32,000 bases of DNA from Halomicronema hongdechloris C2206 (GCF_002075285.3 NZ_CP021983.2:2250001-2282000); one strand, 5' to 3'; positions 5,356-31,595 are shown, numbered from the stretch's first letter. Made by a program: numbers and translations. The notes: a model not told the origin generated them from the letters alone.

Positions 5356-6582
5356 CTACAGCGGCTCCACCCACATAGAAAACACCCAGCCGCCGTCGGC
5401 TAACTCTACCCAGTTCTCTTCCGTGCGTCCGGTTACTTCGACTACCGTGTCACTGGGGACAGTGCGCAACACTCGAAATTGGGTACCAGGTCCCTCCAGC
5501 ACCAGGGCATCACTGCCGTCATCGGTCATGATGCGGCGCTGCTCTGTCTGGTCAGAGTCTCCCGGGCTCGGAGTTTCTGTCGCCGTTGGGCTCGAGGTTG
5601 GGGTCGGACTCGTGGTGGGCTCAGGGCTCGGAGTCTCCGTGGGAGAAGGGCTCGGTTCAGGGGTCTCTGGGGGAGAGGGGCTGGGGCTGGGAGCGGGAGA
5701 GTCTGTAGGGGAGGGGCTTGGTGTCGGACTAGGGGCTGGAGAGGATGTGGTAAAGCCACTGGCCTCTGCCAGAGCCTGACGGGTTTCGGGACCAGCAATA
5801 CCATCAATGGTGAGGCCATTCAGTCGTTGAAAGGTGGCCACCGCGGCTCGCGTGGTGTCGTCATAACGCCCCGTGACGGCGGCGTTACTGGGCCAATAAT
5901 TGAGCTGCTGCAGCTGGCGCTGCAGATCGATAATCTCGGTCTGGCTCAGGTTCGGTGTCGGAGCCGTTGCCTCATCAGGAGGCTCTTGTGGCTGCTGGGC
6001 GGGCGGTGTCTCTGGTTGTACTGATGATGGGTCTCGACGGATCAAGTTGCTAGCTGCCCAGGTGCCATCGCTGAGCTCTACCCAGCCGTCACGGCGGCGA
6101 CCGGTCAGATCTACCGGAGCATTGCGTCGTAATACCCGAGCCACACCATAACGGCGGCCCGGTCCCCAGCGTACATTCAGCCCGTAGCCCGCCGGTGTAT
6201 CGACATAGGCCATGGTGCGATCGCTAACTGGCACCACCTGAATCAGATTGCCAGCCACCCAGCCCCCGTTCTCTAGTTCAGCCCAGCCGTTGGCACTGTA
6301 GCGCCCAGTAATATCAATGGCGTCTCGTGGTTTGAGCACCCCTTGCCAGCTGTAGTCGGTGCCCGGTCCTTGGCGCACATTCAGCCGGTAGCCCCCGGCG
6401 GCCACATAGGCTGGCCTGGCTGCCGCCGTCTGGGCTAGGGCCGTCAGGGTCAGGGTCAGGGCCAGAGGACCGACCCAGGCTAAAGGTAAAGGCCGCAGAG
6501 CCGCCTGCTCAGAGCCCCCATCAGGCGGATCATCAGGCACGTCATACGATTGCCACAGGTGTAGAGGGGCCAGCATGTCCAT
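5356..6582 (-). CDS. Secreted protein with bacterial SH3 repeats and a PG_binding_1 peptidoglycan-binding domain
   Basis: Three SH3b-like repeats ([11 protein letters not shown]...GWAEL..GGWVA; [11 protein letters not shown]...[12 protein letters not shown]; [11 protein letters not shown]...[11 protein letters not shown]). PG-binding motif [11 protein letters not shown]...[34 protein letters not shown]. Pro/Ser/Thr linker. I prefer the start at ATG 6582, preceded by AGGAGA. Confidence 0.75.
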
Positions 6583-8182: not shown

Positions 8183-8255
8183 GGGGCTATAGCTCAGCTG
8201 GTAGAGCACCTCAATGGCATTGAGGGGGTCAGCGGTTCGAGTCCGCTTAGCTCCA
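8183..8255 (+). tRNA. tRNA-Ala (anticodon GGC)
   Basis: 73-nt cloverleaf GGGGCTATAGCTCAGCTGGTAGAGCACCTCAATGGCATTGAGGGGGTCAGCGGTTCGAGTCCGCTTAGCTCCA. Anticodon stem CCTCA/TGAGG with loop ATGGCAT. G3:U70 Ala identity pair. T-loop GGTTCGAGTCC. CCA is not encoded. Confidence 0.95.
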
Positions 8256-9449: not shown

Positions 9450-10450
9450 CTAGGGTAATAGAATGGCGATCTCGACTCGGCGGTTGCGCTGTTGGCCCAA
9501 CTCATCTGCCGCTGCCACTAGGGGTTGGCTGTGGCCGTAACCGACGGCCACCCAATGGTAGTCCTGGCCCAGGCGCTCGGTGAAGTAGCTGCGAATGGCC
9601 ATGGCTTGTTGAAAGGTCAGTTGCCGACTTTCCTCAGCGGACAGGGTGTCGTCGGTATGGCTGCCGATCAAGATCGTAGCCCCTTGATAGCGGCTCAAGT
9701 CTGGCAGGATGGTATCGAGCAGGGGGCGGGCATTGGGTTGTAGGGTAGCCTGGTCAATGGCAAAGAGTAGGTCGGCGGGCAGGGTGACTCGGTAGGTAGC
9801 CAAGCGAAACAGGGGGTCCTGCGCTTGGGGAGAAGCGACAGTAGGGGCAGATGTTTCAGAGGTAGGAGTAGGAGCAGCCGTATCTGCTTCGGTGTCAGGG
9901 GGATTCAACTGCTGTTGCAGCGACCGCAGTCGCATCTCCAAGGGAGCCCGGGAAGGGGATTGACCCAATTGCTCTTCCAAGTCGGAGAGCCGATTCTTCA
10001 TGGCATCCAATTCATCCACCAGGGCAGTGAGGTCATCCTCTAGGCTCTGCCGTTGCTGGGGGGTCAGCTCCAGGGCAGCCGGAGGCGTTGCCGTCGGGGT
10101 GGGGACGGTTGTCGGTAAGCCCACTGGCGTATTGGTATTTAGATCCCCTTGCCACCATTGGGGCAACTGCCGCAGCCGCCGTAGAGTGCGATGCCCCTGC
10201 CGTAGGGCGACTTCCTGCAGGGGCGGTTCTGGGGTCCGGGCCGGGTAGATCTGGGCGACCACCAACCCCCCAAGAGCCAGGCGGCACTGATCCCCACCCC
10301 CAATAGCAGTAAGCGGGCAATCAGCACCCAAAGGCCGTAGGCTAGGGCAGTGATGCCAGCCCGCTGCTGAGGCGGAGATACTTGGGCTTGATCGCCAACA
10401 GCATCTGCCGCGGAAGACTCGGGTTGAGTAGGGAAATCAGGCTCAGCCAT
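9450..10450 (-). pseudogene. OmpA/MotB-domain envelope protein with its reading frame interrupted at a C6/G6 run
   Basis: The C-terminal OmpA-like domain (LFAIDQATLQPNARPLL...IGSHTDD...QRNRRVEIAILLP) and a coiled-coil lie in ORF 9450..10331. The N-terminus and its only TM helix (MAEPDFP...GITALAYGLWVLIARLLLLGVGISAAWLLGG) lie in ORF 10139..10471, in another frame. The two frames meet at CCCCCC 10266-10271. Confidence 0.7.
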
Positions 10451-10480: not shown

Positions 10481-11851
10481 TTATTCGCTGGGCCAGCCAT
10501 CCCAGGGACTGACCTGTAATTCGCCATTAGCAGTAAACACCACCCGGAAATCTGCTTGGGGAGTAGAGGAGGTGACGGGATCTGCCGCGTCCTTTAACTC
10601 CGGGAGCGGGGTTTGCACTAAGGCCGCTGCTGCCGCTTGGTCTACGGCTTCGTAGCCGACTAGGGTGCCGTCCTCGCTGAGACGGACTCGATAGGCTAGG
10701 TCCTGGTCTAGATCCCCAGAGTCCCAGCTGGCCTGCATCTGGTCATACAGGTCGCGATTGAGGCGGCGAATGTCTGGGCCGGTGGTGATTGGGGTGGTAA
10801 TGGTGTCTGATAGGACGGCTGGGGTGGTGGCAGCCGTGTCCTCCAGAGGGCTGGCGCTGACGTCGCCGTTGGGTAAGAAGGTGATGCGGAACAGGGCGAC
10901 GGGCTCATCAATGGGCTCGTCACCTTCCACAGGCACATAGGTCAGATCAGGTAAGGGAGTATCGTCGCCTCGATCCACCGCTAGTTGGTTCTCGTATTTG
11001 TAGCCTAGGATATCTCCGGCAGCCGAGACCGAGACACGAAAGATCAGGGCATCCGAGAGATCTTCCGGGGGAGCCCAGGCAGCCGTCAGCTGTTCCACTA
11101 GGGATTCTCTTAGGGTCGCCAGGGTCTCTGGATCGGTGATTGGCTGGCTGGTGGTAAGGGGATCACTATCGCTACTGTCACTAGGGGGATCCCCGTTGCT
11201 GGCCTCCTCATTGGTGCCATCAGGCGTCGCGGTGGGAGAGGTTGCTTCCGTCTGCTCCCTAGAGCGGCTGGGTTCGAACTCGGGGGGGGGCACAAAGAAT
11301 AGAGCGACGGCGGCGGCAGCAAAGGCTGAGGCCCCGATCATGGCTGGAGCCAAGCGCTTTGTCGCCGGTTCCGGCGGTTTTACCCGTCGTCGAGAAATGG
11401 GCTGCAGGTCTAGGCTCAGATCGGGCAGGGTTTGGGTATCGGCCTGTAACTGATCGACCGCTTCCATCAGGTCGAAGAATTGTACCGTCGAGAGCTGAAT
11501 GTCCCGAGGAGGTTTAGCCGTGTCGTCTGTGGCCTCGGGGTCGGGATGCGATCGCACAATCAGATGATGATAAGGTCCCTCTCCCGGCTTCAGCTCCACC
11601 AAGGAAGGCGCCTCACCGGGACGCGGCGGCACCAACACATCACTGAGCATGGTTTGGCCGTAGCGGTTCACCGCCTTCACCAACGCCTCTAAGAACTCCC
11701 GGCCGCCGGTTAACGGTTCTGGCACTCCGGCCAGGTGGCACTCCGCATTGATCACTGCCGACAATAGGGCAGCCTCTCCCCCCTGCTCTAGGCTCAGCCC
11801 TTCTACGATCAAATTACAATTGGGCAAGGTATACCGGCGCTTTAAGGTCAT
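10481..11851 (-). CDS. DUF4335-domain protein (cyanobacterial, unknown function)
   Basis: The N-terminus MTLKRRYTLPNCNLIVEGLS matches the DUF4335 start as I remember it. There is a central TM segment (MIGASAFAAAAVALFFV) and an acidic low-complexity region. Its ATG overlaps the upstream stop (ATGA at 11848-11851). Confidence 0.7.
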   Translation of the reverse strand: MTLKRRYTLPNCNLIVEGLSLEQGGEAALLSAVINAECHLAGVPEPLTGGREFLEALVKAVNRYGQTMLSDVLVPPRPGEAPSLVELKPGEGPYHHLIVRSHPDPEATDDTAKPPRDIQLSTVQFFDLMEAVDQLQADTQTLPDLSLDLQPISRRRVKPPEPATKRLAPAMIGASAFAAAAVALFFVPPPEFEPSRSREQTEATSPTATPDGTNEEASNGDPPSDSSDSDPLTTSQPITDPETLATLRESLVEQLTAAWAPPEDLSDALIFRVSVSAAGDILGYKYENQLAVDRGDDTPLPDLTYVPVEGDEPIDEPVALFRITFLPNGDVSASPLEDTAATTPAVLSDTITTPITTGPDIRRLNRDLYDQMQASWDSGDLDQDLAYRVRLSEDGTLVGYEAVDQAAAAALVQTPLPELKDAADPVTSSTPQADFRVVFTANGELQVSPWDGWPSE

Positions 11852-12456
11852 ACCACCTCCCCATCAAAGAGACTGCTCCAGAGCCGTTGAGTTCCCCGAG
11901 CTCCCGTGCAGAGCAGTAATTTCGCCAGCATAGTCAACGCTAAATCATCCAACTTCGCATCCGTACTGTAGGCTAGCACCCCGGCTCGCCGCGGGTTCAT
12001 GCGCGCCCTAAAATGGGCCCGAAACCGGCTGAGGTAATCGGCCAAGCGAAAATGATGATCCAACGAGAGTTGCTTGTCACTAAGCTGTTGATAGCCCAGC
12101 AAGAGCTGTCGAATCAACACCGTGAGGCGCCGGGCCAGATGCCCGATAATAATCACTAAAGCCTTAGCTTCGGCCAGACTCAGGGGTCGGCGTTGACTAT
12201 ACCGTCGCATCGGATTGGTGCTGCGCAACAACCACAGATGCACCCGCCCCTTAATCAAGCTCTGCAACTCCAATTGCTCCGCCGTCGTCAGCATTGCCCC
12301 AGACCCACCCAGGTCCAGCGCTTCGATGCTCAGCAGCAACAGATCAATCTGCACCCGAGTCCGCCGGGGACAGATGTTATGACCCGGCAACCGTGGATCG
12401 GGAAGAGAATCGATGAGAAATGGTGTTGATTCTGCAGGTGGACTATCGACTTGCAT
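11848..12456 (-). CDS. DUF3038-domain protein (cyanobacterial, unknown function)
   Basis: 202 aa with IDLLLLSIEALDLGGSGAMLTTAEQLELQSLIKGRVHLWLLRSTNPMRR. Recognised from memory as DUF3038, which usually neighbours DUF4335. Confidence 0.6.
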   Translation of the reverse strand: MQVDSPPAESTPFLIDSLPDPRLPGHNICPRRTRVQIDLLLLSIEALDLGGSGAMLTTAEQLELQSLIKGRVHLWLLRSTNPMRRYSQRRPLSLAEAKALVIIIGHLARRLTVLIRQLLLGYQQLSDKQLSLDHHFRLADYLSRFRAHFRARMNPRRAGVLAYSTDAKLDDLALTMLAKLLLCTGARGTQRLWSSLFDGEVV

Positions 12457-12518
12457 ACCCTCGGGAAGTGCTACAGCACATACTATTACGTTTAGAAAAT
12501 CTAGGACCCTCAGGAAAA

Positions 12519-12791
12519 CTACGTTAGCAGAATTCGTCGATTATCCCCGGCATCCGGCAGAAATGGCCAGGAATATCTGGCTAAATGACCGACCCAATAC
12601 CCTTGTTGAATATAGGTGCTGTAGTAGCCAGCCTCCTCTTGGTGAATGGTCACCTGGCTATCGCCCCTGACCTGCCCCGCTGGCTGCACCCGCAGCCGGG
12701 CCACGCCCGAGAGGTCTTCTGTTTCAATGCCATAGCAATATTGGCCAAGATGCCAAGGCTGAGCCAGCATAACCAACGCGGCGATAGACAA
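12519..12791 (-). CDS. Small hypothetical protein, start uncertain
   Basis: 90-aa ORF from a TTG. An ATG at 12841-12843, one nt after the pgm stop, opens a different frame (MSPVLFLLF...). A 1-nt indel in the C/T-rich run 12810-12830 would join that frame to this ORF and give a signal-anchor-like N-terminus. Weak call. Confidence 0.3.
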   Translation of the reverse strand: MSIAALVMLAQPWHLGQYCYGIETEDLSGVARLRVQPAGQVRGDSQVTIHQEEAGYYSTYIQQGYWVGHLARYSWPFLPDAGDNRRILLT

Positions 12792-12844
12792 GAGTGCATA
12801 GACGATAGGCCTCCCGGAAGAGAAGAAAGAGCACAGGAGACATT

Positions 12845-15324
<2,480 letters not shown>

Positions 15325-15625: not shown

Positions 15626-16924
15626 ATGGCTATGGATCAGACAGCCCCGACTGGGAAGCGATGGCTAGCTTGGCTGCCAAAGTTGAAGCGAGAGGTTTGG
15701 ATTTTAGCGGCAGGGCAACTGCTGCTGTTTATCGGCCAGGGGTTCACCCTGGTCTATGCCTCTATCTTTTTCGTCAATGAGCTGGGCTTTTCCCCCACCC
15801 AGGTGGGACTGGCCCTCGGCAGCGGCGGCGTGTCTGGCACCCTGGGACGATTTTGGTCGGGCAATGCCATCGACTCGCCCCGCTTGGGACGACGGGGCAC
15901 GTTGCTGCTGGCGGCGGTGGTGGCGGCCCTCGGCAGCTTCTCGTTAGCCTTCGCCACCACCTTTCCATTACTAGTGGGCGGCAACCTATTACTGGGGTTG
16001 GGCATCAGCTTCTACTGGCCTGCCACCCTGGCGGTGACCACCGACCTGACCCCCCCGGAGCATCGCAAAGAAGCCATGGCCCTGACTCGGCTGGCGGATA
16101 ATCTGGGCTTGGGTCTGGGGGCGTTGCTGGCGGGGCAATATATCGCCCTGGCCGGGGACTACCGACTGCTGTTCATCTGCAAAGGGCTGGCCTATTTACT
16201 CTTTGGGGTGGTGGTGCTGGTGGCGATTGCCGAAACGGTGCAGCCCCAAGCCGAGCGTCGCAATGTGCTACGGAACTGGTGGCAAGCCTTGCAGGATCGT
16301 CGCCTGATCACCTACCTGATGGCCAACCTATTTTTCACCACCTATGCCGCTCAACTGAGTAGTACCTTGCCCCTGTATTTGGCTAACTTCGTCCCCGGCG
16401 GCAATACGGAGACGGGCTTCTCGGAGCAATTGATCAGCTATTTCTTCGTCTGGCATGCCCTGCTGAAAATTCTGCTGCAGCTGCCGATTACCCGGTGGCT
16501 ACGGGATATCCCCCACCCCACATTGCTGCTAGCCGCTTTGGGGCTGTGGAGTGTGAGCTTTTTCTTGATCTGGTTGATCGGCATACTGTCGGTCCACGCC
16601 CTGATGGTGGCGCTGATGGCCTTTACCTGTGTGGCCATGGCTGAAATTCTCTACGCCCCCTCGGCCTCGGCCCTGGTGGGGGACATGGCGCCTGTTGATC
16701 TGAGAGGCATCTATTTTTCCCTGGAGTCGCAGTGTTGGGCCATTGGCTTTCTGGTGGGACCTGCAATGGGGGGCTGGGCGCTGGATCATCCCTCACTGTT
16801 GGGCACGAATGTTTGGTTAGTGTTGGTCTCTAGCGCCGCCATTGCCGGCATGCTTCTGCTACGGCTGCAGGGGCAGTTAGCTGGTCGTGACGTGGAAGAA
16901 CCGGCCGATGTATCGGCTGGATAA
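15626..16924 (+). CDS. MFS transporter
   Basis: About 12 predicted TM segments. Motif GRFWSGNAIDSPRLGRRGT in the loop 2-3 position. I prefer the start at ATG 15626 (MAMDQT...). Confidence 0.85.
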   Translation: MAMDQTAPTGKRWLAWLPKLKREVWILAAGQLLLFIGQGFTLVYASIFFVNELGFSPTQVGLALGSGGVSGTLGRFWSGNAIDSPRLGRRGTLLLAAVVAALGSFSLAFATTFPLLVGGNLLLGLGISFYWPATLAVTTDLTPPEHRKEAMALTRLADNLGLGLGALLAGQYIALAGDYRLLFICKGLAYLLFGVVVLVAIAETVQPQAERRNVLRNWWQALQDRRLITYLMANLFFTTYAAQLSSTLPLYLANFVPGGNTETGFSEQLISYFFVWHALLKILLQLPITRWLRDIPHPTLLLAALGLWSVSFFLIWLIGILSVHALMVALMAFTCVAMAEILYAPSASALVGDMAPVDLRGIYFSLESQCWAIGFLVGPAMGGWALDHPSLLGTNVWLVLVSSAAIAGMLLLRLQGQLAGRDVEEPADVSAG

Positions 16925-16950
16925 CAGTGGTAGAAGGCAGAAAGGCCATC

Positions 16951-17068
16951 GCCCCTTCGCCGATGCGACGCGCTCTAGCGCACTGATCGACATTCCCTCC
17001 CACGGGGTCCGGGGGAAGCGAAATTCCCCCGGGCGAGCTCCCTGACTGGTGAGATTAAGTGCGGTCTT
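16951..17068 (+). repeat. Unclassified hairpin-rich non-coding element, copy A, 5' module
   Basis: Aligns to 25287-25468 (copy B), except for a 56-nt hairpin that only B carries. Contains an 11-bp perfect hairpin at 17007-17034 with loop GCGAAA. Ends in GTGCGGTCTT, as in B. Confidence 0.7.
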
Positions 17069-17769
17069 GTCGTGATCTACCGCCATTAACCAACATCCCT
17101 TAGGGATCGGGGAAATTTCAGAGTAAACCACTACTACAAACGAAGCCGGCAAAGGCCGACTATCCTGATCTTTACAGGCACGGCCTCTAGCCGCCAGCAA
17201 TGAGATTTTTGTCGATCAATCAGGCTAGATTAGAGGGTATTGGCAACAAATTGACCGATAAGAAAGCACCCCAATCTCTAATAAGAAAACCAGGGTGCCT
17301 TCTAGACTTAAAGGAGCAAGAGTACGCTCTGAAGTGGACTATTTGCAGCACTCAGACTAGTCGCTGAGGGACCTCCTCAAAGTGTTGATGTTGTTTGGAG
17401 ATGCTTCAACACCGTCGTTTAGGGCTGTTGCGTCTCTGGGCATCTATCGCATTGCTCCCTTAGAGTTTAGTGGAGGAAATATCAACAACTAAGTAGAGTG
17501 CTGCTGATCTTGACGAGATAGTTTCAGCCGTTGAGTCGATAACGAACCTCCTCTTTAAGGTGGACTGAACTATTCGAATCGAGGGAATATTTATTCACCT
17601 CTTAGTTATTAGGCTACTCCTGTAACCAGGAAATGTCCATGCATGATACTAAAGTTTATCTCTGGGTTAAGCATGGCTCTCAATCCCCTTCTGGCAAGCG
17701 ACTGTCCCTACGATCGGACAGGGCAGGATGCCGATGGTCAGGACCCATCGCTCTGGAAATGGCTCCCTA
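17069..17769 (+). other. About 0.7-kb A/T-richer, stop-saturated insert separating the two modules of copy A
   Basis: Absent from copy B, where GTGCGGTCTT is followed directly by AGAGGAC. Stops occur in all six frames. Contains local hairpins (AGAG-UACG-CUCU at 17319-17330) and a long-range helix (17518-17527 with 17565-17573). Confidence 0.7.
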
Positions 17770-17887
17770 AGAGGACATTTGGAAACTCGGCTGAAAGGCC
17801 TGTAAGGTAGGCATTTTAGAGTGTATGGCCCTGCTGGCCAGAAACCAGTCTGGAGAAAGGTTGCAGGGTACTTTCCAAACATCCTCT
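17770..17887 (+). repeat. Unclassified hairpin-rich non-coding element, copy A, 3' module
   Basis: 118 nt, aligning without gaps to 25469-25586 with 102/118 identical by hand count. Closed by the helix AGAGGACATTTGGAAA...TTTCCAAACATCCTCT. Confidence 0.75.
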
Positions 17888-18048
17888 AACGGTGATGCCC
17901 GACCTGTCGGGGTAGCCTGTGGCTGGCGGCAAAGTTGTTTAAGATCGAGGGGGCCATTTTCTGATGTTGGCTCCGTCGTGCAGTAATCCCTTCTAGGTAG
18001 GTCATTCTGAGAATTCGTCACCTATTTCCCCACCAGTCTCTCAAGTCC

Positions 18049-19471
18049 TTGGCCGCTACCCTCCATCGCCTGCAACAGGCTCCCGTTCTGCATCCCCATT
18101 TCCCCCTGTCCCCCCAGCGCCTGCCGATATTTTATGGCTGGGTGATTTTGGTGGTCACGACTATCGGGATTCTCATGAGCATTCCGGGGCAAACGGCGGG
18201 GGTGAGTGTGTTTACCGATCCGCTGCTGGCGGCAACGGGGCTGTCGCGGCTGTCGCTGAGCAATGCCTATCTGATCGGCACCCTGACCAGTGGCTTTCTG
18301 CTGCCGTTTGGCGGCGTCGTGATCGATCGCTTTGGCGCCCGCTTGGTGGTGATTGCATCGTCTCTGTGGTTAGCGCTGACGCTGGTGTATTTGAGTGTGA
18401 GTGATCGCCTGGCCCAATGGCTCAGCACCCTCTTTGCCCTGGAGTCGTCCCTGCCCATAGCCTTTGGGCTACTGTGTCTGGGTTTCGTGAGCCTGCGGTT
18501 TAGTGGGCAGGGCATGTTGACCCTGGTGAGTCGCACCACCTTGGGCAAGTGGTTTGATCGGCGGCGGGGGATGGCCTCGGGCACCTCTGGGATTTTTGTC
18601 TCCTTTGGGTTTTCGGCGGCGCCGCTGTTGCTCAGCTTCTTCATTGATGGCTTGGGCTGGCGGGGGGCCTGGCTAGCCCTGGCAGCCTTGGTGGGGCTAG
18701 GCATGGGCAGCCTGGGCTGGTTGTGTTATCGGGATAATCCGGAAGAGTGTGGTTTGGTGATGGGATGCCGTGGCTCGCCACCCGATGTCTTGACGCCGTC
18801 AGCTGCTGCTACCCCCGCGAATACCGGTGACACCAAACCGGCTGCCCAGCCAGATCAGCGGTATTTTGGCCCCCCGCGAGACTTTACCCGCAGCGACGCA
18901 TTGAAGACGCTGGCCTTTTGGGCGGTCACCTTCGCCCTGGCGACGCAGGCCCTGACCATCACCGCGCATCACCTTTCACATTGTCGATATTGGCGCCGCC
19001 GCCGGGTTGCCGCAGAAACAAACCGTGGCGCTGTTTTTACCCATCGGCATCATCGCCACAGCCACCGGGTACCTGATTGGGATTTTGTCGGACCGCGCTC
19101 GCCTGAAGCTGCTCTTCATCGGCATGATGATCTTTGAGGCCATCGGCATCGCGAGCATGGCTCACTTGGATATCGAGCCGTTGCGACTGGTGGCCATTGC
19201 GGGGCTGGGGGTGAGTGGCGGCTGCTTTGGTACCCTCTCGACGGTGACCATGCCCCGCTATTTTGGTCGGCAACATCTCGGTGCGATCGCAGGGGTAGAA
19301 ATGATGACCCTGGTAATTGCCAGCGCCATCGGGCCTTCTCTGCTGGCCCTGTTTAATAACTGGTTTGGCAGTTATCAGCTGGGGCTCTATCTCTGTGCGG
19401 GGTTGCCGTTGGCGGTGAATGGGTTGCTGATTCCCTCGGGTAATCCTCAGCGGCAACCTCGGGAATCCTGA
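18049..19471 (+). pseudogene. MFS transporter (oxalate/formate-antiporter-like), frameshifted near 18964-18967
   Basis: ORF 18049..19137 reads as a good MFS sequence up to ...ALATQALTIT and then becomes junk. ORF 19007..19471, whose frame is open from 18956, continues with ITFHIVDIGAAAGLPQKQTVALFLPIG... and six more TM segments. One extra base in ACCGCGCATC explains the break. Confidence 0.75.
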
Positions 19472-24436: not shown

Positions 24437-25105
24437 TTGACCCATCCGGTGCTATCCCGTCGCAGTCTGAGTCGTCTCAAGTTCATTGCCCTTGGACTCC
24501 TGATTGTCCTGGCAATTTGGCTGATTAACCACTACGGCATGGCCCAGATCCGAGCCCAGGTGGACCAGCTGGGGATGTGGAGTCCCTTAGCTATTTTCTG
24601 TTTGCGGTTCACCAGTGTGGTGGTTCCGGCTTTGCCGGGGACAGCCTATTCTGTGCTCTCCGGTGGTCTATTGGGCTTCAGCCAGGGGTTAGCTGTCATT
24701 TGCCTGGCGGATCTGCTATCTTGCTGCCTGAGTTTTTGCCTGTCGCGACGCTACGGTCGTCAACTGGTGCAACGCCTGGTGGGAGAGCGCCTCATGACTC
24801 GGGTCGATACCCTGAGTCAGCGACACCTAGAACGCAATTTCTTCCTCATGACCGGCTTTTTAATGACCGGCTTTTTCGATTTCGTCTGCTACGGGGTTGG
24901 GTTAACGAAAGCGCCCTGGCTGAAATTTGCTCCGGCCCTGGTGCTGAGTATTGCCATCTCTAACCCGCCGATTGTGGCCCTGGGAGCCGGGATCTTAGAA
25001 GGGGGCAAACTGCTACTGGGATTTGCCCTACTCGGCATCTTTGGTCTGGCCATTGTAACGGGGCTGGTGCAGCGTTATCGAGTCACGGATGCACCTGAGC
25101 CCTGA
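24437..25105 (+). CDS. TVP38/TMEM64 (VTT/DedA-like) family membrane protein
   Basis: VPALPGTAYSVLSGGLLGFSQGLAVICLADLLSCCLSFCLSRRYGRQLV matches the VTT-domain core. TTG start as given by the ORF track. Confidence 0.75.
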   Translation: MTHPVLSRRSLSRLKFIALGLLIVLAIWLINHYGMAQIRAQVDQLGMWSPLAIFCLRFTSVVVPALPGTAYSVLSGGLLGFSQGLAVICLADLLSCCLSFCLSRRYGRQLVQRLVGERLMTRVDTLSQRHLERNFFLMTGFLMTGFFDFVCYGVGLTKAPWLKFAPALVLSIAISNPPIVALGAGILEGGKLLLGFALLGIFGLAIVTGLVQRYRVTDAPEP

Positions 25106-25111
25106 GGGGTG

Positions 25112-25160
25112 GAGTGGAGAGTGACGAGTGGAGAGTGACGAGTGGAGAGTGACGAGTGGA
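25112..25160. repeat. Tandem repeat, GAGTGGAGAGTGAC x3.5
   Basis: Exact 14-nt units at 25112-25125, 25126-25139 and 25140-25153, plus a partial GAGTGGA at 25154-25160. Starts 7 nt after the stop at 25105. Confidence 0.95.
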
Positions 25161-25168
25161 TGGGTAAT

Positions 25169-25184
25169 GGGGTGATGGGGTGAT
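25169..25184. repeat. Tandem repeat, GGGGTGAT x2
   Basis: Exact 8-nt units at 25169-25176 and 25177-25184. Confidence 0.85.
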
Positions 25185-25190
25185 GAGAAG

Positions 25191-25218
25191 TTTTGAATTT
25201 TGAATTTTGAATTTTGAA
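25191..25218. repeat. Heptanucleotide tandem repeat, TTTTGAA x4 (STRR-like)
   Basis: Exact 7-nt units at 25191-25197, 25198-25204, 25205-25211 and 25212-25218, followed by a degenerate GTTTTAG. Confidence 0.95.
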
Positions 25219-25286
25219 GTTTTAGGGTTTGAGTGAGGGCATGCCAGGCTCTTACTCTCATCATGGGTTGAGCAAAAGGGAAACAA

Positions 25287-25586
25287 GCCCCTCACTTCCT
25301 TGCCGATGCAACGCGATCCATCACTACTCACCGATATGCCCTTCCGCGGGGTCCAGGGCGGTAGTTCGACTGCGCTCACCACAAGTGGAACGCCCTGGTC
25401 GTAGGGGTCCGGGGAAAGCGAAATTTCCCCGGGCAAGCTCTCTGGCCTGGGAAACTAAGTGCGGTCTTAGAGGACATTTGAAAACTCGGCTGAAAGTCCT
25501 GCCGGGTAAGCGTTTTAGAGCGTACGACTCTGTTGGCCAGAATCCAGTCTGGAGCAAGGTCGCAGGGTACTTTCCAAATATCCTCT
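25287..25586 (+). repeat. Unclassified hairpin-rich non-coding element, copy B (uninterrupted)
   Basis: Homologous to 16951-17068 plus 17770-17887. Hairpins at 25353-25398 (8-bp stem CCAGGGCG/CGCCCTGG) and 25407-25434 (11-bp stem, loop GCGAAA). The 3' module 25469-25586 is closed by a 15-16 bp helix. Confidence 0.75.
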
Positions 25587-25708
25587 TACCGAGGTCTACC
25601 ATTGCCTTGCCGATATGACAAAATCCACAACGGCTAGTCGACAGTCCTTCCGCAGGATGCAGGCTGACGGAAAAGCGAAGTGCAGAGAGGGGAGGAGCGC
25701 AGTTGCGA

Positions 25709-26413
25709 CTACTGGCCGAAGGCACCGAGGCCGTAGTAACAATAAGGAGCGGCGCAGTTCGGCATAATCACATTGATGGTGAAGGGGCCATCCCATTGGG
25801 GAGTGACTTCCACAATGGGCATAGCATCTGTCTCCGTATCCGAGTCAATTAAGTTGCCGTTCTCATCATAGAGTTCTAGGTCCATATCGCCACAATCACT
25901 GTCACAGACGCCGATGATGCCATAGGAAACGCCACCGCGCAGATCCAGGGTGATTGGTTCTTGGGTGTTGTCTGCCAGTTGGCCTAGGTAGGGTTCATGG
26001 GTGAGATCAAAGCCATTTAGGCCGGCCTGCTCGCTGACGGCAACCAACTGCTGGCCCACCTGAGCTCGGAAGGCCTGATCGGGATCGGTTGCGGATGCTG
26101 ATGTCGGTTCTGGGGTAGGGGGATTACTGATGGGGGTCGGTGCTGGAGTTGGGGGGTCAGGTCCTTCAGTGGATTCGGTGGCATCGGTGGTCGAATCCTC
26201 GGTGGGAGTACTCTCCTCGCTGGTGTCTACAGGGGAAACCTCGCTGAGGCCAATGCCCATCAGAATAATAAAGATTCCCATGCCGATGGAGGCGGCGCGG
26301 GGGATGGTTCCAATTTTGGGAATGGAGATATCTCTAATAGATAGCCCACCGCCCCACAGGCCCGTGGACAGTAAGATAGCTCCGAAAATGAAGGCGACGA
26401 TATCGATGCTCAT
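25709..26413 (-). CDS. Membrane-anchored hypothetical protein with acidic/Pro-rich linker and Cys-containing beta-rich C-terminal domain
   Basis: Start at ATG 26413 (MSIDIVAFIFGAILL...). Two N-terminal TM helices, a linker (TSEESTPTEDSTTDATESTEGPDPPTPAPTP), and a C-terminal segment ITLDLRGGVSYGIIGVCDSDCGDMDLELYDENGNLIDSD reminiscent of pre-peptidase C-terminal-type domains. Confidence 0.6.
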   Translation of the reverse strand: MSIDIVAFIFGAILLSTGLWGGGLSIRDISIPKIGTIPRAASIGMGIFIILMGIGLSEVSPVDTSEESTPTEDSTTDATESTEGPDPPTPAPTPISNPPTPEPTSASATDPDQAFRAQVGQQLVAVSEQAGLNGFDLTHEPYLGQLADNTQEPITLDLRGGVSYGIIGVCDSDCGDMDLELYDENGNLIDSDTETDAMPIVEVTPQWDGPFTINVIMPNCAAPYCYYGLGAFGQ

Positions 26414-26647: not shown

Positions 26648-27816
26648 TCAGGGGCTATCTGGGGCGTAGCGCTGGGCCAGGGCCAAGGCATTCTGTCGAT
26701 GTTGGGCAGCTAGTTCCTTGGGGGTCAAAATCTGGGCCAAGTGCATGAAGCGATTGACCCAATGGCTGAATTCTCGCAAGGATCGCGGTGGCAGTTGCAC
26801 CGAGAAATCGACATGGGGGTCCCCCTGGGTGTGCCCTCTTCTGAGGCGCTGACTGGGGTGACGACGTTCTCCTTCTAGGATGAATTCAGCTACCGGATGG
26901 AAGAAGCGCACCTTTACCGAGACCAGTTTGCCCTGGCCCGAACGTTCTTGTTGTTGCTCTTCTGAGGTGCCTAGGTAGAGCCCCCACCCCTGCTTTAATA
27001 ATTGGTGGGCTACTTCTAGGCGTTGAGTTTGTGCCTGCAGACTGCGGCACTCATAGTCCAAGGCTGTAACCTGCTCACTGAGGCGATCGACCCGGGCGAT
27101 CTCTAAATGCTGATTGTGCAGATGCTCATAGAGGAGATACCAGGCGGTGTCAGCGTAGATCAGCTGCAGGGGATAGACGGTGAGGTGGCCTGTGCCCATG
27201 CTGCCGTAGGGGTCGCGATGACGCATTAACTCTAGGGATTGGCCGGTTGCGATCGCACGTTCCACAACATCTAGGGCATGAAATAGGGTGCGGCGATAGT
27301 GCCCCTTGGCCATCATCTCATCAGGGTCGGTGTAGACGATGGTGCGGCTAAGGTGAGTGCGCACCGGGTAGAATAGCTGGCCCTGGAGTTCTAGATTCAG
27401 GCCTCGCAGGCGGCGTTCTAGGGTGCTGTAGAGTTTGCGGATACGTGGGTCGCCTTGGTGTTGGGCTTGGCTGGCCAGGGCTTGCAGGGCGGCGCGCAGT
27501 TCGTCGCTGGTGAAGACGCCGCTGCCTAAATAGTAACCCCAGCGATACATGCGCTGTTCTAGGATGCCGTAGCGGCGCAGGGTTTTGAGATCTTTGCGAA
27601 TGGTGTGGACTGAGTAGTCAGGCAAGATAATGCCAAGCCATTGAGCCGTCTGTTGCATTGTTTGCACGATGGCGGCGGCGGCGTCATGGTCGCCGGGGGT
27701 GTGATCATCGGGGTCGGGGGCCCCACGCCGGGGTGGCGCACCAGGGTGGCAATCAACACCATCAGCCGCTCGAGCGCGGACGGTTCTGTGTAGGAGCTTG
27801 GCGGAGTGTTGCCCAT
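26648..27816 (-). pseudogene. WYL-domain transcriptional regulator (HTH-WYL-WCX), frameshifted near its N-terminus
   Basis: WYL core HLTVYPLQLIYADTAWYLLYEH and HTH-like TIRKDLKTLRRYGILEQ lie in ORF 26648..27832. The conserved-looking N-terminus SALERLMVLIATLVRHPGVG lies in ORF 27559..27816, in another frame. The frames meet at GGGGG/CCCC 27716-27724. Divergent from the cas10 operon. Confidence 0.75.
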
Positions 27817-27881
27817 TATGGCTGCATGTCAATTAAAAGAAAATATTCCTGATGGCTGGCCTGGCCTGTAGAAGCTCTAAT

Positions 27882-27933
27882 ATATCAGCGCTTTAGATGA
27901 CGATCGGCATTTGTGAAGATATCAGCCTTTAAG
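27882..27933. promoter_or_regulatory. Candidate operator pair in the WYL / cas10 divergent intergenic region
   Basis: ATATCAGCGCTTTAG (27882-27896) and ATATCAGCCTTTAAG (27919-27933) share an exact 8-mer plus CTTTA, 37 nt apart. A TAATAT -10-like hexamer lies at 27879-27884. No experimental support. Confidence 0.2.
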
Positions 27934-27998
27934 AGCGCCTCTCGATGGTCCCTTGTTAAATTGGGCGCTAACTCAGGCACTTTCCGAGGATAGGTACT

Positions 27999-28097
27999 GT
28001 GTCAACAGCATTCTGGCAAGCCAAGATCTGGGGTTTGTTGCATGATCCTGCCTTAAGGAACTCGCATCATGTCTCCCAGCAAGAGGTGATGGCATGA
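27999..28097 (+). CDS. 32-codon micro-ORF encoding a Cas10/Cmr2 N-terminal HD-motif remnant
   Basis: The GTG-initiated ORF translates to VSTAFWQAKIWGLLHDPALRNSHHVSQQEVMA. WQAK..LLHDP..K is the HD-motif start of Cmr2 proteins (compare P. furiosus ...YLHDPPDKAL). Its stop overlaps the cas10 ATG (ATGA at 28094-28097). Confidence 0.45.
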   Translation: MSTAFWQAKIWGLLHDPALRNSHHVSQQEVMA

Positions 28098-29650
28098 CTG
28101 AGACAATCTACACGGCCATCAGCTTCGCCCCAGTTCAAGGATTCATTGAAAAATCGCGTAAGTTGCGAGATCTCTATGGAGCCTCAGGACTGCTGTCTTA
28201 TCTAGCTAAACAACTGGTTGAAGCTAAACCCGAGAATTGCAGCGTCATTTCTCCGGCATCAGTTAATTTGCAGCAGGGCATGCCTAATCGCATCTTGATT
28301 CGCGGCGATTACCCTCGCAATTTAGCCCAGCAAACCTTGCTGCAATCCTGGCAAAAAATCTTAGACGACTCTCGTAATTGGGTTGAAAGGCGTTTGCAGT
28401 CAACCTTTCCCCCTGACAGCTATCACTGGCAAGAGGTGTGGGATAAATGGGGACGCTATCACTGGGAGGTGTTTTGGGGCCATGGCAATTCTATTCAAGC
28501 TGCCATGGATGACTTGGAAACTCGAAAATTACGTCGGGATTGGGTCGCCGTAAACTGGGTCGGTGAAAGCTCTAGCCTATCTGGGGTGGATGCCATTGCC
28601 TGGCCAGGCCTGGGAGCATTCAATTCTGATCCGGGGTGGCCGATTGCAACTGCTGAAAAGCAGCAGCTTGATAGCTTTTATCAAGTGCTAGATAAATCTC
28701 TCAGCCACCCTGGTACCGGTGAAGACGACACGACAGGGCGATTTTTAGCCTCCAATGAACGCCTGAGCGTGCCTGAGTTGGTTAAACGCCTAGTCACTTG
28801 GCCGCAACTCGCTAAAAAGCTAGGCATTACTGAACTGGAATCCGGCTTTACCGATATCCATCGCAACACTCGTGATGGCAAGGGGCAGTGGACCGGCTGG
28901 TTCATGGGGGATGGCGATAAAGTAGGCGATCACCTCAAGGAAATTGCCAAGTCTGGAGATCAGGCTATTGCCGACTTTAGTCAGGCCATGCGGCAGTGGG
29001 GAAAAACCTTTAGCCAGTCTATGCCTAAGCAGAAGGGGCGCGTCATTTATGCCGGTGGGGACGACTTCCTGGGAGTACTCTATGGCCAATCTCCCGATCA
29101 CCCATTAGCCCCCAAAGCAGCCTTGGAGTGGTTGATGGGATTGAACGCCCAATGGCAACAACATGGCTATGACCTCACCGTAAGTGTCGGGTTTGTTTGG
29201 GTTTCTCCACATGTGCCCCAACGAGATGTGCTACAACATTGCCGCCAAGCCCAAAAACGCTCTAAACGGCTTGGGCGTGATCGAGTCACGATTCGAATTG
29301 TGTTCAATAGCGGCCAGTCGGTGCAATGGACCTGCCGCTGGCAAGATTTAGGCGTATTGACAGGATATTGCGATCGCAACGGCAAGCGCTGGGACGAAAC
29401 CCCTAACTGGGTACATCTCCTCACCGACTGGCAACACTTGAAAGCCCGCCATGCCATTCCCGTCAAAGCCAGCGAAGAGCACATCGACCAGCAAATTGCC
29501 ATCGAGTTTTTCGAGATTTACTTTCCCGGTTATAAGCAGTACCTGCTGAATCATAGCCAAGACATTTTAGGCAATGATGATAACCCCAGGGCCATGATCG
29601 ATTGGATTGAAGGGGCAATTCAAGTGGGCTGGTATCTAGGCTCAGCCTAA
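28094..29650 (+). CDS. cas10: Type III CRISPR Cas10/Cmr2 large subunit, short form lacking the HD domain
   Basis: 518 aa. Starts at the palm-1 entry motif YTAISFAPVQGFIEKSRKLRDLYGASGLLSYL. Has GWFMGDGDKVG and the cyclase motif VIYAGGDDFLG (GGDD at 29054-29065). Followed by cmr3- and cmr4-like genes. Confidence 0.85.
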   Translation: MTETIYTAISFAPVQGFIEKSRKLRDLYGASGLLSYLAKQLVEAKPENCSVISPASVNLQQGMPNRILIRGDYPRNLAQQTLLQSWQKILDDSRNWVERRLQSTFPPDSYHWQEVWDKWGRYHWEVFWGHGNSIQAAMDDLETRKLRRDWVAVNWVGESSSLSGVDAIAWPGLGAFNSDPGWPIATAEKQQLDSFYQVLDKSLSHPGTGEDDTTGRFLASNERLSVPELVKRLVTWPQLAKKLGITELESGFTDIHRNTRDGKGQWTGWFMGDGDKVGDHLKEIAKSGDQAIADFSQAMRQWGKTFSQSMPKQKGRVIYAGGDDFLGVLYGQSPDHPLAPKAALEWLMGLNAQWQQHGYDLTVSVGFVWVSPHVPQRDVLQHCRQAQKRSKRLGRDRVTIRIVFNSGQSVQWTCRWQDLGVLTGYCDRNGKRWDETPNWVHLLTDWQHLKARHAIPVKASEEHIDQQIAIEFFEIYFPGYKQYLLNHSQDILGNDDNPRAMIDWIEGAIQVGWYLGSA

Positions 29651-29689
29651 TCGGTCTGTGACAGCATCTCTCATTTATCCGAAATCGTT

Positions 29690-30760
29690 ATGTTTACTCA
29701 CCTGATTACCATTTCTCCATTGGGGTTTCTCTACGGCAGTGCCGGGGCCTTCCTAACCCCTGAGAATCTGGTAGGGCTAGCGGGGACTAAATTTCCCCCC
29801 GATGCCTCTACCCTCGCTGGGCTCATCTTTAGTGCATTAAAAACTGGACACCTAGAGGCTGAAAATCTGACTCAGGACCAGTTGCGAGAGCAGCTATTTG
29901 TGGCAGGTCCCTTCTGGGCCAATGTCAGCGACCCCCACAATTTCTACATTCCAGTTCCCCGCCATAAGATTCTGGGCGACAAGGACACAGATCAATGGGA
30001 AATTCGCAACTACCACTGGTGGCGCGACGAAACTACCCATCCAGATATAGAAGCAGACTATCACTGGCAGCGCATCGATACCTGGGACTACTCTCCAGAT
30101 GAAATCAAGGCAAACCAGGCCGCCGCTAAAGATGTCTGGACCCATGTGCCCATGCTGCATCCCAGCCTCAAATCTGATGAACGCCATGTCCGCGACGAGA
30201 ATGGCTTGTTTTTAGAAAACGCCGTGCAAATGCAGCCCAATCAATGGGACGGCGGCTATGACGAAACTTGCCTGGTGTATTTATCCACCATTGCCCTCAA
30301 GCCAGGGTGGTATCGCTTTGGAGGAGAAAGTCATCTGGTTGAAATCTCGAGCCATGAACTGGATGAGACCAGCCCCATCGTGGAGTTGTTGCAACGCCCC
30401 ATTGAGGATTCCTTTGCTCTGATCGGGCCTGGCATATGGGGCTCCAACCATCTCTCGCTGCGCTATCCCAGGCACTCAGACTTTTCTGAACGACGTCCCA
30501 TGATGCTGACCGATCGCCCCAATCCCTATCGCTATCGCCTGGGTAGCCAATCTGGGGAGTATCAAACCGGCCCCATGCGCAAAGCCGGACGCCTAAGCCG
30601 GGGACGCTACGCAGTCCCTACGGGTACGGTCTATGTCTTCAAAGACCCTCTGGGTAAATCCTGGTGGGATTGGCCAGAGGACTGGTTTCCCAAAGAAGGC
30701 TTTCCCCTAAAACACTTGGGCTGCAATCTCAGCCTACCCGTTGAAATTTCTAGGAGTTAA
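29690..30760 (+). CDS. cmr3: Type III-B Cmr3-like RAMP subunit
   Basis: 356 aa directly after cas10. The N-terminal block ISPLGFLYGSAGAFLTPENLVGLAGTKFPPDASTLAGLI resembles the Cmr3 start (F..G..F....S.FPP.PST.AG). Position in the operon agrees. Confidence 0.7.
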   Translation: MFTHLITISPLGFLYGSAGAFLTPENLVGLAGTKFPPDASTLAGLIFSALKTGHLEAENLTQDQLREQLFVAGPFWANVSDPHNFYIPVPRHKILGDKDTDQWEIRNYHWWRDETTHPDIEADYHWQRIDTWDYSPDEIKANQAAAKDVWTHVPMLHPSLKSDERHVRDENGLFLENAVQMQPNQWDGGYDETCLVYLSTIALKPGWYRFGGESHLVEISSHELDETSPIVELLQRPIEDSFALIGPGIWGSNHLSLRYPRHSDFSERRPMMLTDRPNPYRYRLGSQSGEYQTGPMRKAGRLSRGRYAVPTGTVYVFKDPLGKSWWDWPEDWFPKEGFPLKHLGCNLSLPVEISRS

Positions 30761-30764
30761 CGTC

Positions 30765-31595
30765 ATGTATGCAAAGGCCTACGGCATTATCGAAACCCTA
30801 GCCCCCCTGCATGTTGGGGCCAGCGCTGGGGAGGAAAGTGGTAACCTGAATCTCATTTTTCGCGATCAATTTACGCAGACTGGCATCATTCCTGGTAGTT
30901 CCATTCGCGGCCGGTTCCGAGCTGATATGCGCTCAGGATCAGAAGATGAGAACACCTGGTATGGCCATGAAGCCATTGAAGGACGGGAAGACGGTGGCAC
31001 TACAGAAGCCATCGTTAAGTTTGAGCATGCCTCGCTGGTATGGCTGCCGGTTTTTTGTCCTGGGCAACCCATCGTCTGGATCACATGTCCCTACTTGCTG
31101 AAGCGCTATGGGCGAATCAGGCAGATAGAGGCTGAAATACCAGATCCCTACACGGCTCCTAGGGGCTTGCCAGGTCGTCAAGTAGACACTACCAAGAAAG
31201 TTCTATTCTTTAACCTTGGCTTTTTAGAAATCGAGCGCGAAGCGGATCTATCTGCCTGGGTGCCCAATAAAGAGGGAACAGATAAAAAGCTGATCGATCC
31301 TAACTTAACCGTTGTCGTTGCAGATGGTGATATTGCCATGTTGCACGATATGGCCCTCTACCGCCAAAGTCGGGTCAAACTCGTGGATGACATGAAGAAG
31401 GTTGATACTGAAAAAGGTGCGTTCTTTAACGTAGAAGCCCTGCCAGAAGGTAGTATCTTGATTTTCCCCATTGCCCTTAAACAAACCGGCTGGCAACCTT
31501 TTGAAGCGGGAGAGAAGACTGAAGAACTCTACTTTGGCGGCCTAGAATCCGTGGGTTTTGGTCGCTGCCAAGTCACGATTGGAGGTAAGTATTAA
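30765..31595 (+). CDS. cmr4: Cmr4-like RAMP backbone subunit
   Basis: ATG at 30765, 8 nt after TAGGAG and 4 nt after the cmr3 stop. Motifs LAPLHVGASAG...IIPGSSIRGRFR and C-terminal GGLESVGFGRCQV (RAMP G-rich loop). Confidence 0.75.
   Translation: MYAKAYGIIETLAPLHVGASAGEESGNLNLIFRDQFTQTGIIPGSSIRGRFRADMRSGSEDENTWYGHEAIEGREDGGTTEAIVKFEHASLVWLPVFCPGQPIVWITCPYLLKRYGRIRQIEAEIPDPYTAPRGLPGRQVDTTKKVLFFNLGFLEIEREADLSAWVPNKEGTDKKLIDPNLTVVVADGDIAMLHDMALYRQSRVKLVDDMKKVDTEKGAFFNVEALPEGSILIFPIALKQTGWQPFEAGEKTEELYFGGLESVGFGRCQVTIGGKY

Follow-up and report, generated by a model that had tools for sequence, protein, structure and literature searches.

Repeats in two intergenic regions of Halomicronema hongdechloris

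The window analyzed here, a stretch of 32,000 nucleotides from the genome of Halomicronema hongdechloris C2206 (NZ_CP021983.2, 2250001 to 2282000), contains two intergenic regions in which the same hairpin-bearing sequences recur. Copy A lies 3' of a gene for an MFS transporter and copy B lies 3' of a gene for a TVP38/VTT protein, in both cases on the same strand as that gene, which agrees with the placement behind membrane-protein genes given in a preliminary description of this DNA. That description treated the 300 nt of copy B as a single uninterrupted element made of a 5' module and a 3' module; here the 5' module is named E5 and the 3' module is named the MITE. For comparison we used a sister species, represented by several JGI metagenome contigs (L002, L003, L039, L040, and L041), in which TVP38 is 81 to 82% identical at the protein level and the MFS ortholog is 89% identical. 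The features of the two intergenic regions are as follows.

16954 to 17081, plus strand: E5 copy A, 128 nt, from CCTTCGCCGATGCGACGCG to GTGCGGTCTTGTCGTGATCTACC, without hairpin a; covariance model score of 139.6 bits
17007 to 17034, plus strand: hairpin b of E5 copy A, with an 11-bp stem and the loop GCGAAA
17082 to 17767: non-coding stretch, richer in A+T, that separates E5 copy A from MITE copy A and is absent from L041
17768 to 17770: left target-site duplication TAA of MITE copy A, the same trinucleotide standing at 17887-17889
17771 to 17886, plus strand: MITE copy A, 116 nt, with inverted repeats GAGGACATTTGGAAA and TTTCCAAACATCCTC
17887 to 17889: right target-site duplication TAA of MITE copy A
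17890 to 17910: 21-nt tail, CGGTGATGCCCGACCTGTCGG, the end of a block of about 950 nt that is missing in the sister species
25106 to 25230: short tandem repeats (GAGTGGAGAGTGAC three times, GGGGTGAT, and TTTTGAA four times), located between the TVP38 stop codon and E5 copy B
25298 to 25469, plus strand: 5' part of E5 copy B, ending in TTA (25467-25469), the MITE insertion point; 163 bits
25353 to 25398, plus strand: optional hairpin a of E5, CCAGGGCG ... CGCCCTGG, found in copy B and the sister copy and not in copy A
25407 to 25434, plus strand: hairpin b of E5 copy B
25470 to 25585, plus strand: MITE copy B, 116 nt, within the 3' strand of the E5 closing helix
25586 to 25588: right target-site duplication TTA of MITE copy B, the left TTA being 25467-25469
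25589 to 25600, plus strand: 3' part of E5 copy B, CCGAGGTCTACC, which aligns with GTCGTGATCTACC in copy A and ATCGAGGTCTAC in L002
25605 to 25672, plus strand: degenerate partial tandem E5 abutting copy B, with a local alignment above shuffles and a weak covariance model score

The recurrence of these sequences at two loci of the window, as first described, is real and far beyond chance. The 3' module aligns without gaps at 85% identity between 17767-17890 and 25466-25589 (blastn E = 5e-37), and within it the earlier hand count of 102 identical positions out of 118 proved to be exact, with 12 of the 16 differences being transitions. The 5' module aligns in two blocks, of which the first pairs 17004-17068 with 25404-25468 at 85% identity (blastn E = 7.5e-16) and the second pairs 16954-17014 with 25298-25358 at 77%; copy B exceeds copy A by a hairpin of about 46 nt (25353-25398). 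The idea that the 118-nt pair is the template and variable repeat of a diversity-generating retroelement was dropped, since most of the differences are transitions of every kind, with no adenine specificity.

The two modules also occur apart from each other. Contig L002 of the sister species carries E5 alone at 2309-2468, with the MITE about 7 kb away on the opposite strand (minus strand, 9550-9806, upstream of the TVP38 gene), and two further metagenome contigs, L042 and L043, contain the MITE and no E5. Because the modules are separate on these three contigs and elsewhere in the same genome, the 300 nt do not make up one element, contrary to the preliminary description. Nor is copy B uninterrupted, as had been supposed: it is in copy B that E5 is split by the MITE and resumes on its 3' side at 25589-25600, while in copy A the two merely adjoin, separated by 686 nt. 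The E5 of L002 continues beyond the end originally assigned to the 5' module with ...GATTAAGCGTCGTCTCATCGAGGTCTAC; past the same point, copy A continues with ...GATTAAGTGCGGTCTTGTCGTGATCTACC, and copy B continues with ...ACTAAGTGCGGTCTTA, followed by the 3' module and then CCGAGGTCTACC. Removal of the MITE and one TTA from copy B in silico left a sequence that aligns end to end with both E5 copy A and the L002 copy. The resumption of E5 sequence after the 3' module in copy B identifies the 3' module as an insertion within E5.

The 300-nt stretch very probably represents two unrelated non-autonomous repeats, a MITE and an older E5, that share two intergenic regions by chance. Small selfish repeats, nested in copy B and adjacent in copy A, are the best explanation of the pair; one MITE would have landed within E5 in copy B, and another would have landed 686 nt downstream of a different E5 in copy A. 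In both window copies, the MITE follows closely on the 3' side of an E5 and has the same orientation relative to it, which is unexplained if the two repeats are fully independent, and this shared arrangement may stem from permissive intergenic sites or from a preference of the transposase. The explanation is an ordinary one, and the pair implies no new mechanism; it does illustrate that a MITE nested in another repeat can mimic a two-module structured RNA.

Anatomy and mobility of the MITE

At the level of anatomy, the nature of the 3' module is settled: it is a MITE of 116 nt, below the size of about 300 bp taken as the limit for such elements, and every copy is bounded by the 15-bp terminal inverted repeat GAGGAYRTTTGRAAA. 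Four inverted-repeat sites of the GAGGAYRTTTGRAAA type are present in the window, against 0.22 expected by chance, and they lie at 17771-17785 and 17872-17886 in copy A and at 25470-25484 and 25571-25585 in copy B. Perfect 3-bp direct repeats of the form TNA flank the MITE at six independent loci in two species.

TAA (in MITE orientation): window copy A
TTA: window copy B
TCA: L002 (the same locus as in L039 and L040)
TCA: L042
TCA: L043
TGA: copy in the same genome near 2.079 Mb (PMC6416890, Additional file 1)

Since these flanking trinucleotides are direct and not inverted, they are target duplications and no part of the inverted repeats. An alignment of five MITE copies gave the same boundaries, with similarity beginning and ending exactly at the trinucleotides and with unrelated flanks. 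Of the possibilities raised in the preliminary description, it is thus the mobile-element relic that holds for the 3' module, which has both inverted repeats and target duplications.

The MITE bears signs of recent movement. The copies of L002 and L042 are identical at 116 of 116 positions and occupy different loci, and MITE copy A is missing from the orthologous sister-species site on L041. Window copies A and B share 100 of 116 positions. The third H. hongdechloris copy (at about 2,079,400) is closer to copy B (110/116) and is situated at the edge of a region labelled IS5-ssgr-IS903 by ISsaga (PMC6416890, Additional file 1). The loci seen number three in H. hongdechloris and three in the sister species, so that the picture of an ordinary MITE applies as far as clean inverted repeats and duplications are concerned, but with six copies and not the dozens that had been imagined for such an element. 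L042 and L043, whose MITEs are uninterrupted, were located through a protein search (with neither a profile nor a word index) in which the query was a spurious 133-aa ORF. The relatives of this ORF in the protein library, P0241 and P0242, are themselves ORFs read across other MITE copies; a third library match, P0243, was set aside as an unrelated repetitive protein. As a marker of recent mobility, the MITE could aid strain typing and genome assembly of chlorophyll f-producing cyanobacteria.

The helix reported to close the 3' module exists and coincides with the 15-bp inverted repeats, although the single mismatch per copy that was ascribed to it has to be corrected, as each window copy has two mismatches between its repeats (C.A plus A.C). 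Neither strand of the MITE folds better than the other (z = -3.1 and -3.3), as expected of inverted repeats. The covariation attributed to this module did not stand: there is one compensatory pair, and 88 to 106 of 500 shuffles reach the observed values, which is background. Because the closing helix is formed by the inverted repeats and covariation is at background, the 3' module gives no RNA signal. Inverted repeats can mimic a closing helix, and an occasional double transition can mimic covariation.

Two other small elements were observed in the sister species. On L002 (9647-9778), and also on L039 and L040, a 132-nt element is nested inside the MITE; its inverted repeats are GTGATTTGCAAA and TTTGCAAATTAGC, and CTGAGAG flanks it as a 7-bp duplication. 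The L039 variant has a 16-nt internal deletion, and no copy was found in the window. L041 contains a diverged relative of the MITE at 5907-6013, with 72% identity over 86 nt and with longer inverted repeats (GAAATCTGCTCAGAG...); here TCA/TGA belongs to the inverted repeat, and there is no duplication. The latter element adjoins a 285-aa gene that is absent from the window. This gene was considered as the parent transposase and was rejected because it has no Pfam domain.

Family assignment of the MITE

Members of the IS1031 subgroup of the IS5 family prefer the target 5'-TNA-3' and make only 3-bp repeats (PMC12016507). An exclusive 3-bp repeat at TNA was found for six of six MITE copies. Both MITE termini read GAGGA..., and ends starting with GAG presumably fit the IS1031 subgroup according to the ISfinder criterion. 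From the target duplication and the GAG termini, we infer an IS5-family element, of the IS1031 type or closely related to it, as the source of the transposase. The MITE, which has no gene of its own, would be a miniature DNA transposon of the cut-and-paste type; its DDE transposase, supplied in trans, would recognize the GAGGAYRTTTGRAAA inverted repeats, insert the MITE at TNA, and duplicate those 3 bp. IS5-family elements were recorded in the H. hongdechloris genome by ISsaga (PMC6416890, supplement), and the subgroups listed there are ISL2, IS5, and IS903, with IS1031 absent from the list (PMC6416890). No autonomous IS or full-length parent with matching inverted repeats was found in the fetched loci. 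A longer element suggested by a MITE-like left repeat at 17230-17246 was dismissed as a chance match, with 76% identity over 17 nt and with differing flanking trinucleotides.

In common with IS1031-derived MITEs, the element described here is small, lacks an ORF, has inverted repeats that start with GAG, and has a 3-bp TNA duplication. The Tourist MITEs of the PIF/Harbinger superfamily, which duplicate TWA, are eukaryotic analogues. Among cyanobacteria, we compared Nezha of Anabaena and Nostoc, MaeMITE of Microcystis, and the Anabaena MITEs, which are intergenic elements of 130 to 435 bp with inverted repeats, flanking direct repeats, and stable predicted folds, and for which filled and empty sites are known between close relatives (PMC3184786). 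The MITE of H. hongdechloris differs from them in host lineage (Halomicronema) and in sequence, and it is likened to them by description only. The Halomicronema mobilome gains a second small repeat besides this MITE family, which is of the IS5 type and unnamed; the gain is mainly one for annotation.

Orthologous sites in the sister species

Both window copies of E5 are absent from the orthologous sites of the sister species. The intergenic region downstream of TVP38 is 103 nt long there, and the region between the two MFS genes comprises 261 nt in L041 versus 1124 nt in the window, with similarity resuming between window positions 17907-18044 and L041 positions 11341-11478 (85.5%). Since the shared region resumes only at about 17907 to 17911, E5 copy A, the A+T-richer segment, MITE copy A, and the 21-nt tail are all lineage specific; the E5 junction could not be placed exactly, as the empty L041 site has diverged too far.

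The sequence between E5 copy A and MITE copy A differs in composition from its surroundings, with 47% G+C in 17069-17769 versus 57% for the window. The segment 17082-17767 contains no long ORF and gave no match in the Rfam, plasmid, and fetched-locus searches. A decayed transposase within these 686 nt was considered and rejected, because a six-frame Pfam scan of 16950-17910 returned no credible family.

Anatomy of E5

E5 is extragenic and hairpin bearing, has an optional hairpin module, and was seen as three full copies and one partial copy. The full copies measure 128 nt (copy A), 184 nt (copy B), and 160 nt (L002, 2309-2468). In the RNAalifold consensus of the three, a predicted long-range closing helix pairs CGATGCGACGC with GYGYSGTCT...CG, and the loop of hairpin a is longer in copy B than in the sister copy. 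Hairpin b is the 11-bp hairpin with the loop GCGAAA noted in the preliminary description, and both the hairpin and its compensatory A-T/G-C change are real. Terminal inverted repeats are absent from E5, a target duplication is not visible, no hairpin is conserved near its left end, and no intrinsic terminator was found.

The third copy suspected at 25605 stands only in part. The stretch from 25605 onward gives a weak, partial, collinear match to the first 70 nt or so of E5; its local alignment to the sister copy scores 28, with a maximum of 23 in 500 shuffles, and 4 of 500 shuffles reach the score obtained against copy B; the covariance model, on the other hand, assigns this stretch only 8.5 bits (E = 0.71). 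With the three-copy covariance model, the window and the fetched loci (267 kb) yielded no further full E5, and about 100 kb of this searched DNA belongs to H. hongdechloris and related contigs.

E5 is most likely an older selfish intergenic repeat of the REP/ERIC kind, possibly cotranscribed with the gene upstream of it. ERIC, REP/BIME, and BOX repeats are, like E5, extragenic, often located 3' of genes, and imperfectly palindromic, and they are likewise modular, with optional inserts and no obvious transposase of their own. E5 differs from them in being known from only three to four copies and in having an unrelated sequence, and it is known here from sequence alone.

Alternative readings

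It is possible, although we consider it somewhat unlikely, that E5 acts at the RNA level, as a 3'-UTR element or a small RNA, borne by a mobile repeat or descended from one, that would adopt the closing helix and the hairpins as its fold. One example, equally tentative and drawn by analogy with REP, ERIC, and BIME sequences, is that it might shield the upstream mRNA from 3' exonucleases. All three E5 copies and the partial copy have the orientation of the upstream gene. Across the three copies, hairpin b has three compensatory pairs and 97.8% of its cells are paired, wobble pairs favor the plus strand (8 G-U cells versus 2 A.C cells), and the sister copy folds with a z score of -2.3. However, the covariation comes from three sequences only and is matched by 28 of 500 shuffles, palindromes can persist by maintenance at the DNA level, and the plus-strand fold of copy A reaches a z score of just -1.4. 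The lack of an intrinsic terminator and the absence of E5 from the orthologous sites also speak against a function in RNA, as does copy B, which tolerates a MITE within the closing helix.

E5 could instead be a non-autonomous element of an IS200/IS605-like or IS110-like type, which has no inverted repeats or duplication and chooses specific targets, but this we judge to be unlikely. The ends of E5, with neither inverted repeats nor a visible duplication, are consistent with such an origin, and subterminal hairpins are present. The motif CCATYG occurs 0 to 5 nt upstream of E5 in three of four left flanks, which in this small sample is suggestive of target choice by E5. Against this, there are only four copies, the flank of copy B lacks the motif, the left end has no conserved hairpin, no Y1 or DEDD transposase is found nearby among the larger ORFs scanned, and the junction is not fixed by the diverged empty site of L041.

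Still less probable is that E5 represents an undescribed structured RNA on a mobile repeat, either a 3'-UTR stabilizer or an orphan guide- or bridge-type RNA. In that case, the closing helix and hairpin would be kept for RNA function and not for transposition, and the guide- or bridge-type option would imply as the partner of E5 a transposon family that has no inverted repeats and no target duplications.

There is very little room for the reading that one structured non-coding RNA gene accounts for the whole stretch of about 300 nt and exists as two copies, of which an insertion has split one. Hairpins are present, each module has one compensatory pair, and both copies lie in the same orientation behind a gene. 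Yet the modules are found apart from each other, target duplications flank the 3' module at each of six loci, neither copy is conserved at the orthologous site, and in copy B the MITE would break the closing helix. For the whole element, folding z scores are unremarkable on both strands (plus, -1.5; minus, -1.3), and Rfam gave no match. At gathering thresholds, Rfam 15 detected in the window only a tRNA-Ala at 8183-8255, and permissive scans of both strands of 25100-25800 and 16900-18100 (E <= 10) returned chance-level matches only. HEARO, cobalamin, RNase P, and group II families, which the preliminary description had singled out for comparison, were not among these matches at either locus.

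The proposal that the 3' module is the right end of an IS200/IS605-type (PATE) element with an orphan omega/HEARO-like guide scaffold has almost no probability left, since its sole support is a non-coding, hairpin-rich stretch, IS200/IS605 elements, which insert 3' of a fixed tetra- or pentanucleotide, have neither terminal inverted repeats nor a target duplication while the 3' module has both (with duplications of the form TNA), which excludes such a right end, and HEARO and omega RNAs (of IscB, IsrB, and TnpB), which like the 3' module are non-coding, structured, and tied to mobile elements, are matched here neither by a covariance model (no HEARO match at E <= 10) nor by a nuclease gene nearby, as no TnpA, TnpB, IscB, or IsrB domain was detected by Pfam in 20 of the larger ORFs of the window and in the three ORFs that cross the elements.

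Coding potential and database searches

The region has no credible ORF, as the preliminary description had stated: the three ORFs that cross it (129, 133, and 84 aa) have no Pfam match, and a six-frame concatenated translation of both elements found no match in an index of 5.8 billion proteins. A scan of the genome collection with GGCCAGAANCCAGTCTGGAG yielded one chance match, in a Lachnospiraceae contig, and did not return the copies of the window itself. A metagenome scan with the E5 pattern GCCGATGCRACGCGN{20,40}GGGGTCC yielded 31 loci, all of which are chance matches according to blastn and the covariance model; the collection behind these 31 loci excludes the sister-species contig that would be expected to match. 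Scans of viral contigs returned nothing relevant, and blastn of copy B against plasmids and phages gave no match.

Neighboring sequence

The tandem repeats at 25106-25230 are outside both elements. Tandem repeats of this kind number 722 genome-wide in H. hongdechloris (PMC6416890). Purine-rich repeats were also observed after stop codons in the sister species, both upstream of the L002 E5 and at the empty site.

Two overlapping ORFs, 18049-19137 and 19007-19471, divide the second MFS gene (18049-19471) between them, and both match MFS_1; the L041 ortholog of this gene (11579-12883) is a single intact gene of 434 aa. The split gene is either a frameshifted pseudogene or the result of a sequencing error. 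ARAGORN predicted a tRNA-Cys of 98 nt at 5874-5971, inside a 439-aa peptidoglycan-binding/SH3 gene; Rfam does not confirm this call, which is probably a false positive.

At 26648-31595, type III-B CRISPR genes, encoding Cmr2/Cas10, Cmr3, and a RAMP protein, come after a gene for a WYL/WCX-domain regulator. This region is syntenic with the sister contigs, of which L002 has a truncated Cmr2 gene and, after it, a gene for an IS3-type (rve) transposase.
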